Positions 3,823-5,268 of a DNA stretch of 64,000 bases are shown in pieces. Source of the DNA: Escherichia coli (lineage in GTDB: Bacteria; Pseudomonadota; Gammaproteobacteria; Enterobacterales; Enterobacteriaceae); assembly GCF_003334785.1 (NCBI RefSeq), contig NZ_QOWV01000004.1; one strand, given 5' to 3'. Each line of letters starts with the position of its first letter. Position 1 is the first letter of the stretch. Both the position numbers and the translations under genes were made by a program. The notes beneath the pieces are model-generated. The model saw only the letters and a list, made by a program, of their open reading frames with translations, had not been told where the DNA came from and ran no database searches.

Positions 3823-5268
3823 TTATTTCCTCCGCAACGTTACGCCGCCGGAAACCGCATCACCCTCTTTCTGTAACCCACCGCCGTCCACCACCATCGT
3901 CCCTGCAACTGCAGACGAGAGGACGTGTGTTGTGGAGACGGGCATCCCAATATAACTGGCAAGACCGATAGACACTGCCGCCGTCATTTGTGCCGCCATG
4001 CCTTGCGCATACGTCATGCCGCGCTTACCAATCTTCTCACCGATGGTCATCGCTACACGACGCCAGCCAATCATGGTGCCAATGCCGAGCGCCAGTGCTA
4101 CCGCCATGATGATCCACACCGGAGCGTACTCAATGGTGCTTAACATATCGCTGCGAAGTTTTTTCAGCAGGTTCTGGTCTTCTTTACTGACGCCTGGCAG
4201 TTTCGCTAGCTTCGCGGAGGTATCAGAGATGCACAGCATAATGCGGCGCAGCTGGCTGCGCTGACTCACGCTTAACGGCTCGTAACTTTCCATATTGCCT
4301 GGCAGCATCGTTTTAACGCGCGCAATAGCATCAAAGGTATTTGCCGGATGACAGTGAAACTCTGTTACTTGCGTGCCATCAGTCGATGCTGCAGGCAATG
4401 GAGGTTCCATCGCAATCAACTTCTGCGGCAGTTCAGGATGCTGTTGCAGGTAGTGTTCGAAGTTGGTAACGGCATCGCGGGTACGGGTAATTTCATAGCC
4501 GGACGCATTCATATTGACGACGAAGCCAGCAGGGGCAATCCCCACCAGTACCAGCATTACCAGGCCGATCCCTTTTTGTCCGTCGTTCGCGCCGTGCGAA
4601 AACGCCACGCCCGCAGCGGAAACAATCAGCGCAATACGCGTCCAGAATGGCGGTTTACGTTTGCCTTTTTTCTTTTTGCGATCTTCCGGAATGCGGTGAA
4701 TACGGTCACGCTTTTTCGTCCCGCTCCAGTAGCGTCGCAGCAGGAATATCAGGCCTCCCGCAATGACCAGGCCGACGATAGGGGAAACAATCAGCGAGGA
4801 GAAAATTTTGGTCACTTCACGCAGGTTTAACGCATCCATCACCGATGAGCCGGTTAACAGCGCGTTGGTTAAACCGATGCCGATAATCGCACCAATCAAG
4901 GTGTGCGAACTGGAGGCCGGTAAACCGAAGAACCACGTTCCCAGGTTCCAGATAATCGCCGCCAGCAGCATGGAAAAGACCATCGCCAGGCCGTGGGTTG
5001 ACCCCATATTCAGCAACAAATCGGTTGGCAACATATGGACAATGGCATAGGCAACGCTAAGTCCGCCCAATAACACGCCAAAAAAGTTAAAAAATGCCGC
5101 CATCACCACAGCAAGTTGTGGTTGCATGGCACGAGTATAAATAACGGCTGCCACCGCATTCGCCGTGTCATGAAAACCATTGATTGCTTCGTAGAACAAC
5201 ACAAATGCCAGAGCAAGCAATAACAAAAGCCCTGTGTATATATCAAGGCCAACAAATAAATTTAGCAT
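3823..5268 (-). CDS. pitB: Low-affinity phosphate transporter PitB-like, C-terminus altered and shortened (481 aa)
   Basis: Pit-family sequence throughout; last ~15 aa ([15 protein letters not shown]) replace the expected final segment after ...VVDGGGLQ; stop codon sits 1 nt from the gspM-like start. Confidence 0.8.

Follow-up and report, generated by a model that had tools for sequence, protein, structure and literature searches.

In Escherichia coli K-12, pitB encodes a low-affinity phosphate transporter of the PiT/PHO4 family. The gene stands at one end of a series of genes that reads yghD–yghE(gspL)–gspC–gspS–pppA–sslE(yghJ)–glcABGFEDC–yghO–yghQ–yghR–yghS–yghT–pitB. At the other end of the series lies the remnant of a β-type type II secretion system (T2SS), of which K-12 keeps yghD, a partial gspL, gspC, gspS (yghG) and pppA, together with sslE. 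The speC–pitB interval is known as the pheV hotspot of gene gain and loss (indels) across E. coli (Touchon et al. 2009, PMC2617782).

We analysed the pitB locus in a 64,000-nucleotide stretch of E. coli DNA, referred to below as the window. The promoter side of pitB and the neighbouring gss, yghU and hyb genes are the same as in K-12. The two alleles differ at the 3′ end of the gene: K-12 pitB keeps a final hydrophobic helix and the pitB–yghT hairpin, whereas the window allele has neither. At the T2SS end, the window matches K-12 exactly in yghD and in the final 55 nt of gspL but, of the secretion genes that K-12 keeps, it retains only yghD and 48–55 nt of gspL. The features at this end of the window are as follows.

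1..3114, plus strand: distal end of a pheV-inserted island, with RadC/JAB, DUF987, a YeeU/CbtA toxin–antitoxin pair, DUF5983′, DUF957 and DUF4942 (ORFs and the annotation of strain Z1323CEC0007)
3115..3136, plus strand: 22-nt copy of the 3′ end of tRNA-Phe (pheV), one G missing relative to K-12 (comparison with K-12 pheV)
3145–3173, following the pheV 3′-end copy: pheV terminator hairpin (scan for terminator-like hairpins)
3285..3821, minus strand: yghD (gspM-β), intact, 178 aa, an orphan remnant directly downstream of pitB′ (ORF list; accession WP_000942785.1, as in K-12)
3823..3870, minus strand: 3′ remnant of gspL-β (yghE), the last 15 codons plus the stop, 100% identical to K-12 (L001 29201–29248)
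3871..3877, no strand assigned: deletion junction with the 7-bp microhomology CTGTAAC (three-way base alignment; BLAST piece boundaries at 3877 and 3871)
3823..5268, minus strand: chimeric ORF of 481 aa, pitB′ (aa 1–466) fused to ′gspL-β (last 15 aa) (ORF list; comparison with K-12 PitB and GspL)

A chimeric pitB–gspL open reading frame

According to a protein comparison, residues 1–466 of the ORF at 3823–5268 are 100% identical to those of K-12 PitB. The K-12 protein comprises 499 residues, and the last 33 of these (467–499), which follow the GGGLQ motif, are replaced in the window. The 15-residue tail found in their place corresponds exactly to the C-terminus of GspL-β (YghE), as encoded both by the partial gene of K-12 and by the intact gspL of strain EC812A1. 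These 15 residues are all that the window retains of GspL, as compared with 392 in EC812A1. The stop codon of the chimeric ORF occupies 3825–3823 and the ATG of the gspM-like gene yghD begins at 3821, leaving a gap of 1 nt, which is the native gspL–gspM spacing.

These results largely agree with the initial annotation, which had described a Pit-family ORF whose 3′ end is replaced in frame after GGGLQ by that of a gspL-like gene, with a stop codon 1 nt before the gspM-like start. The identity of the tail is now established as GspL-β and the spacing is as described. The replaced C-terminus had been taken to be ∼35 aa forming the last transmembrane helix; the helix is indeed lost, but the segment is 33 residues long. 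Similarly, the alignment to K-12 pitB and gspL that had been suggested for locating the breakpoint did reveal a deletion junction, at 3871–3877 and not at the predicted 3865–3870.

A profile search matched residues 30–467 of the ORF to the Pfam PHO4 domain (PF01384) with an E value of 1.7e-84. The match covers only model positions 1–322 of 350, such that the domain is incomplete and its C-terminal transmembrane helix is absent. In K-12 PitB, the lost residues 467–499 form a hydrophobic segment, centred at ∼478–490, that aligns with the terminal portion (∼368–396 of 402) of 6L85, a solved PiT chain from Thermotoga. The 15 GspL residues that replace this segment are hydrophilic. Because its last transmembrane helix is missing, the PitB of the window is probably inactive or severely impaired. 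The ORF thus truncated reads as a C-terminally truncated pitB pseudogene, and PGAP makes the same call in six junction-bearing genomes.

A 7-bp microhomology at the junction

Window positions 3800–3950 were aligned base by base to the gspL/yghD side and to the pitB side of K-12. The match to gspL is perfect up to 3877 and that to pitB is perfect from 3871 on. The overlap, CTGTAAC, occurs in both K-12 genes in the same direct orientation, 48 nt before the stop codon of gspL and 102 nt before the end of pitB, and a single copy is kept at the window junction. A microhomology of at least 7 bp has a probability of ∼4e-4 at a random junction. On the coding strand, the repeat reads GTTACAG and spans the Leu-Gln codons of both PitB (…GGGLQ) and GspL (…QDALQ); the fusion is in frame because the two proteins both read Leu-Gln across it. 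As judged from the alignment, the junction is of the kind left when DNA between short direct repeats is deleted.

The genes between the repeats

Relative to K-12, the window is missing 23,798 bp (L001 5403–29200), this being the distance between the two repeats. In K-12, the missing interval contains yghT, yghS, yghR, yghQ, IS5, yghO, glcC, glcDEFGBA, sslE (yghJ), pppA, gspS, gspC and most of the partial gspL. Comparison of this K-12 interval with the whole 64-kb window yielded no BLAST matches, and the block has therefore not moved within the window.

We also searched complete genomes using a composite probe comprising the 300-bp junction and 200-bp pieces of yghR, glcD, glcB, glcA, sslE, pppA and gspC. 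The probe matched in one place only, the junction, in every one of the 39 junction-bearing chromosomes listed, that of the closest relative among them. Over the genomes with any match, the median was 9 places; plasmids accounted for 26 places in the whole collection. As the seven interior pieces match nowhere in the 39 chromosomes listed, the block has been lost from these chromosomes and has not been relocated within them. The initial annotation had given a K-12 order with yghE through yghT, including glc and yghJ, between yghD and pitB, and had proposed a large deletion that truncates PitB. The K-12 annotation agrees with that order, and the absence of the block from the window and from the listed junction-bearing chromosomes bears out the deletion.

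K-12 does not represent the full ancestral state of the interval, since it lacks the acyl-AMP ligase cluster and has IS5 at yghQ/yghO instead. Other strains keep a full gspC–M cluster (EC812A1) and extra genes between yghQ and yghO (ES5), both of which K-12 has lost. The ancestral deletion may therefore have exceeded 23.8 kb if the ancestor possessed an intact β-type T2SS and the yghQ–yghO cluster. We place the original size at about 23–40 kb, but this estimate is uncertain because relatives differ in the content of the interval and because the intervals of strains 2452 and ES5 are rearranged. The flanks of these two strains are 100% identical to the window, yet 2452 carries a kps capsule island and ES5 a gspK′/acyl-AMP-ligase′ deletion of its own.

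The extra cluster between yghR/yghQ and the glc side was seen in some strains (L013 5038–13593, L005 4781–7663). Its genes encode a fatty acyl-AMP ligase, an epimerase, an acyl carrier protein, a serine palmitoyltransferase, LptF/LptG paralogues and a YtfJ-like protein.

Neighbouring features

The intergenic hairpin that separates pitB from yghT in K-12, a likely terminator, is gone from the window. A consensus scan, in which the total number of sites was no more than expected by chance, detected no terminator-like site on the minus strand between pitB′ and yghD. On these two grounds we propose read-through from pitB′ into yghD, which is probably now co-transcribed from the pitB promoter. The orphan yghD is itself probably without function.

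On the far side of yghD, the copy of the pheV 3′ end at 3115–3136 is the right-hand att-type repeat bounding the pheV-inserted island. No intact tRNA was found in window positions 1–6000. In Z1323CEC0007, the genes of the pheV island include those of the LEE type III secretion locus (ler, esc, sep, grlRA), one for an Ag43-type autotransporter and the YeeU/CbtA pair. The source strain of the window is probably atypical EPEC-like, without SslE and the β-type T2SS.

Three further observations were made elsewhere in the window. First, the annotation of yghX (about 15753–16637) records a frameshift in the closest genome, as it does in four more of the carriers inspected; the gene is intact in EC812A1. 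Second, a fimbrial-cluster gene downstream of yqiH (58193–59257) encodes 354 aa without interruption in the window, and its counterpart in the closest genome has a frameshift annotation owing to one extra base near window position 58689. Third, positions 62104–62837 comprise two tandem copies of ∼358 bp, 90.8% identical, that overlap type I toxin genes of the Ibs family (ibsE and a second Ibs gene). The duplication of this toxin–antitoxin locus is known.

Occurrence of the junction and other alleles of the interval

A 200-bp junction probe aligned in one piece and at 100% identity in 41 of the 5,426 complete RefSeq E. coli genomes (roughly 0.8%). The carriers include ML35, O157:H16 98-3133, NCTC9087, NCTC9100 and an O2:H16 strain, and their sources range over humans, poultry, pigs, a dog, a crow and vegetables. 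The closest complete genome, that of Z1323CEC0007 (chicken, Korea), is 99.975% identical to the window over all 64 kb. In all six junction-bearing records inspected, including that of the closest genome, RefSeq/PGAP labels pitB "incomplete; missing C-terminus". Literature searches for this allele turned up no description of the junction, only the account of the speC–pitB hotspot (PMC2617782). The initial annotation had called the junction novel; given the 41 carriers and the pitB pseudogene flagged in the six records, it is not novel, and is already known from public pseudogene annotation.

Related losses are common in the same collection. The glcDEFGB segment is absent from 880 of the 5,426 genomes (∼16%). 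In 694 genomes the final 102 nt of pitB are missing, the canonical 3′ end being present in the other 4,732. In addition, the speC–pitB interval yielded at least four more deletion alleles of independent origin:

LZHX12: yghT′/gspL′ junction
EC812A1: IS1-bounded gspS′/yghT deletion, in the strain with the intact 392-aa GspL
ES5: gspK′/fatty acyl-AMP ligase′ junction
O157 AR-0427: IS-bounded (IS3/IS66 debris), with a shorter, C-terminally truncated pitB pseudogene

These four alleles share with the window the losses of glc, sslE and T2SS-β genes, but their breakpoints differ and several are IS-associated. By contrast, the window allele is joined cleanly at a microhomology, which results in an in-frame chimera. 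The deletion is an ordinary one: the hotspot is published and has many such alleles, and the genes affected are dispensable.

Origin of the junction

Illegitimate recombination at short homologies in E. coli joins direct repeats of a few base pairs, retains one copy and involves no mobile element. The window junction fits this description. We are confident that a deletion between CTGTAAC repeats, in an ancestor with the arrangement pheV–yghD–gspL…sslE–glc…yghT–pitB, made the pitB′–gspL′ scar; no result speaks against the deletion itself. Starting from this usual order, recombination between the two 7-bp direct repeats, one in gspL and one in pitB, would have removed everything between them (23.8 kb by the K-12 map, probably more in the ancestor) and retained one repeat copy. 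The product would be an open gene encoding PitB 1–466 and 15 GspL residues, with the native gspL stop codon 1 nt before yghD. Because the clean junction keeps one copy of the 7-bp repeat, the mechanism is likely to have been RecA-independent, short-homology illegitimate recombination, either by replication slippage or by annealing after a break. Of these, annealing after a double-strand break is the more plausible, since a spacing of at least 24 kb between the repeats is long for simple slippage.

The allele probably goes back to one deletion in a K-12-like (phylogroup A-type) background, inherited since then. The yghD–pitB′ segment differs by 0–1 SNP among six carriers, and the flanks of five carriers from other strains are 99.92–99.98% identical to the window over 8.9–12.9 kb. 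The K-12 flanks are 99.96% identical too, so the flank SNPs carry no lineage signal as to single versus multiple origin; because K-12 is equally similar, the flanks do not separate clonal inheritance from spread by recombination. Alternatively, the deletion could have recurred at the CTGTAAC repeats, or have arisen once and spread between lineages by homologous recombination. The carriers possess different pheV islands and represent varied hosts and serotypes (O157:H16, O2:H16, ML35 and NCTC strains), as recurrence or spread would predict, and the interval is a hotspot of recombination and indels (PMC2617782). However, the flanks of the carriers are nearly identical, a recurrent deletion is improbable between repeats of 7 bp that lie more than 20 kb from each other, and turnover of the pheV island after the deletion explains the differences between islands equally well. 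We therefore regard recurrence or spread as unlikely.

A mobile-element origin, whether through an IS-mediated adjacent deletion or through imprecise integrase excision of the pheV island, was considered in light of the IS association of other alleles (IS1 in EC812A1, IS3/IS66 debris in O157 AR-0427 and IS5 between yghQ and yghO in K-12) and of the island lying only 735 bp from the junction region. Inspection of the sequence, the ORF list and the K-12 alignment revealed no IS element, IS inverted-repeat end or target duplication at 3871–3877, and no tRNA or att-like site was found at the junction in a tRNA scan of positions 1–6000. Moreover, the pheV repeat at 3115–3136 and yghD are intact, and both breakpoints fall inside ordinary genes at a common 7-mer. 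These features make a mobile-element origin very improbable.

There is a comparably slim chance that the chimera is made as a stable membrane protein whose transport or regulatory activity is altered or residual, or that the whole deletion is adaptive and has spread between lineages by recombination. An adaptive deletion of this kind, conferring the loss of the SslE/T2SS-β surface antigen and of glycolate catabolism, would explain the co-occurrence of the junction with different pheV islands, including the LEE island.

Two further explanations can be dismissed. A native PitB variant with an alternative C-terminus, arising without any deletion, would account for an ORF that is open and conserved in all six junction-bearing genomes examined, but it is hardly credible given that the tail and its 48 nt match the 3′ end of gspL exactly, with the stop codon and the 1-nt spacing to gspM, that the canonical pitB 3′ end is found in 4,732 of 5,426 genomes, and that the missing segment is spanned by both the PHO4 profile and the 6L85 structure. 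An assembly artefact, in which a collapsed or chimeric contig joined pitB to gspL, was considered since the junction adjoins a repeat-rich island; no evidence for one was found, and this possibility, which the initial annotation had raised as misassembly, is excluded for practical purposes by 41 independent complete assemblies from varied laboratories, hosts and countries that are 100% identical over 200–300 bp of the junction, by the lack of the interior genes in the listed junction-bearing chromosomes, and by the length of the repeat, 7 bp being much too short to mislead an assembler.

Predicted consequences of the deletion

If, as we conclude, the locus is the scar of a deletion between the CTGTAAC repeats, several functions are predicted to be missing. 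For PitB, a K-12 pitB deletion mutant shows wild-type-like uptake of Pi, PitA being responsible for roughly 90–95% of Pit-type transport (PMC3501828). The cost of losing PitB is probably small, because PitA carries most of the low-affinity phosphate uptake. With respect to the glc genes, the strain is probably unable to use glycolate via GlcDEF/GlcB, as it is predicted to be without glycolate oxidase, malate synthase G and glycolate permease. It likewise probably makes no SslE and no β-type T2SS.

For the lineage as a whole, the scar predicts that the glc pathway will not support growth on glycolate and that there is neither SslE mucinase nor secretion through a β-type T2SS. It further predicts dependence on PitA and Pst for phosphate uptake, together with an orphan gspM. 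Beyond correct annotation, the importance of the finding is small. The junction offers a handy way to recognise, by PCR or from sequence, the ∼0.8% of sequenced E. coli that have it. It is also a clean case from nature of 7-bp repeats delimiting a deletion of at least 24 kb, here on the margin of the pheV hotspot.
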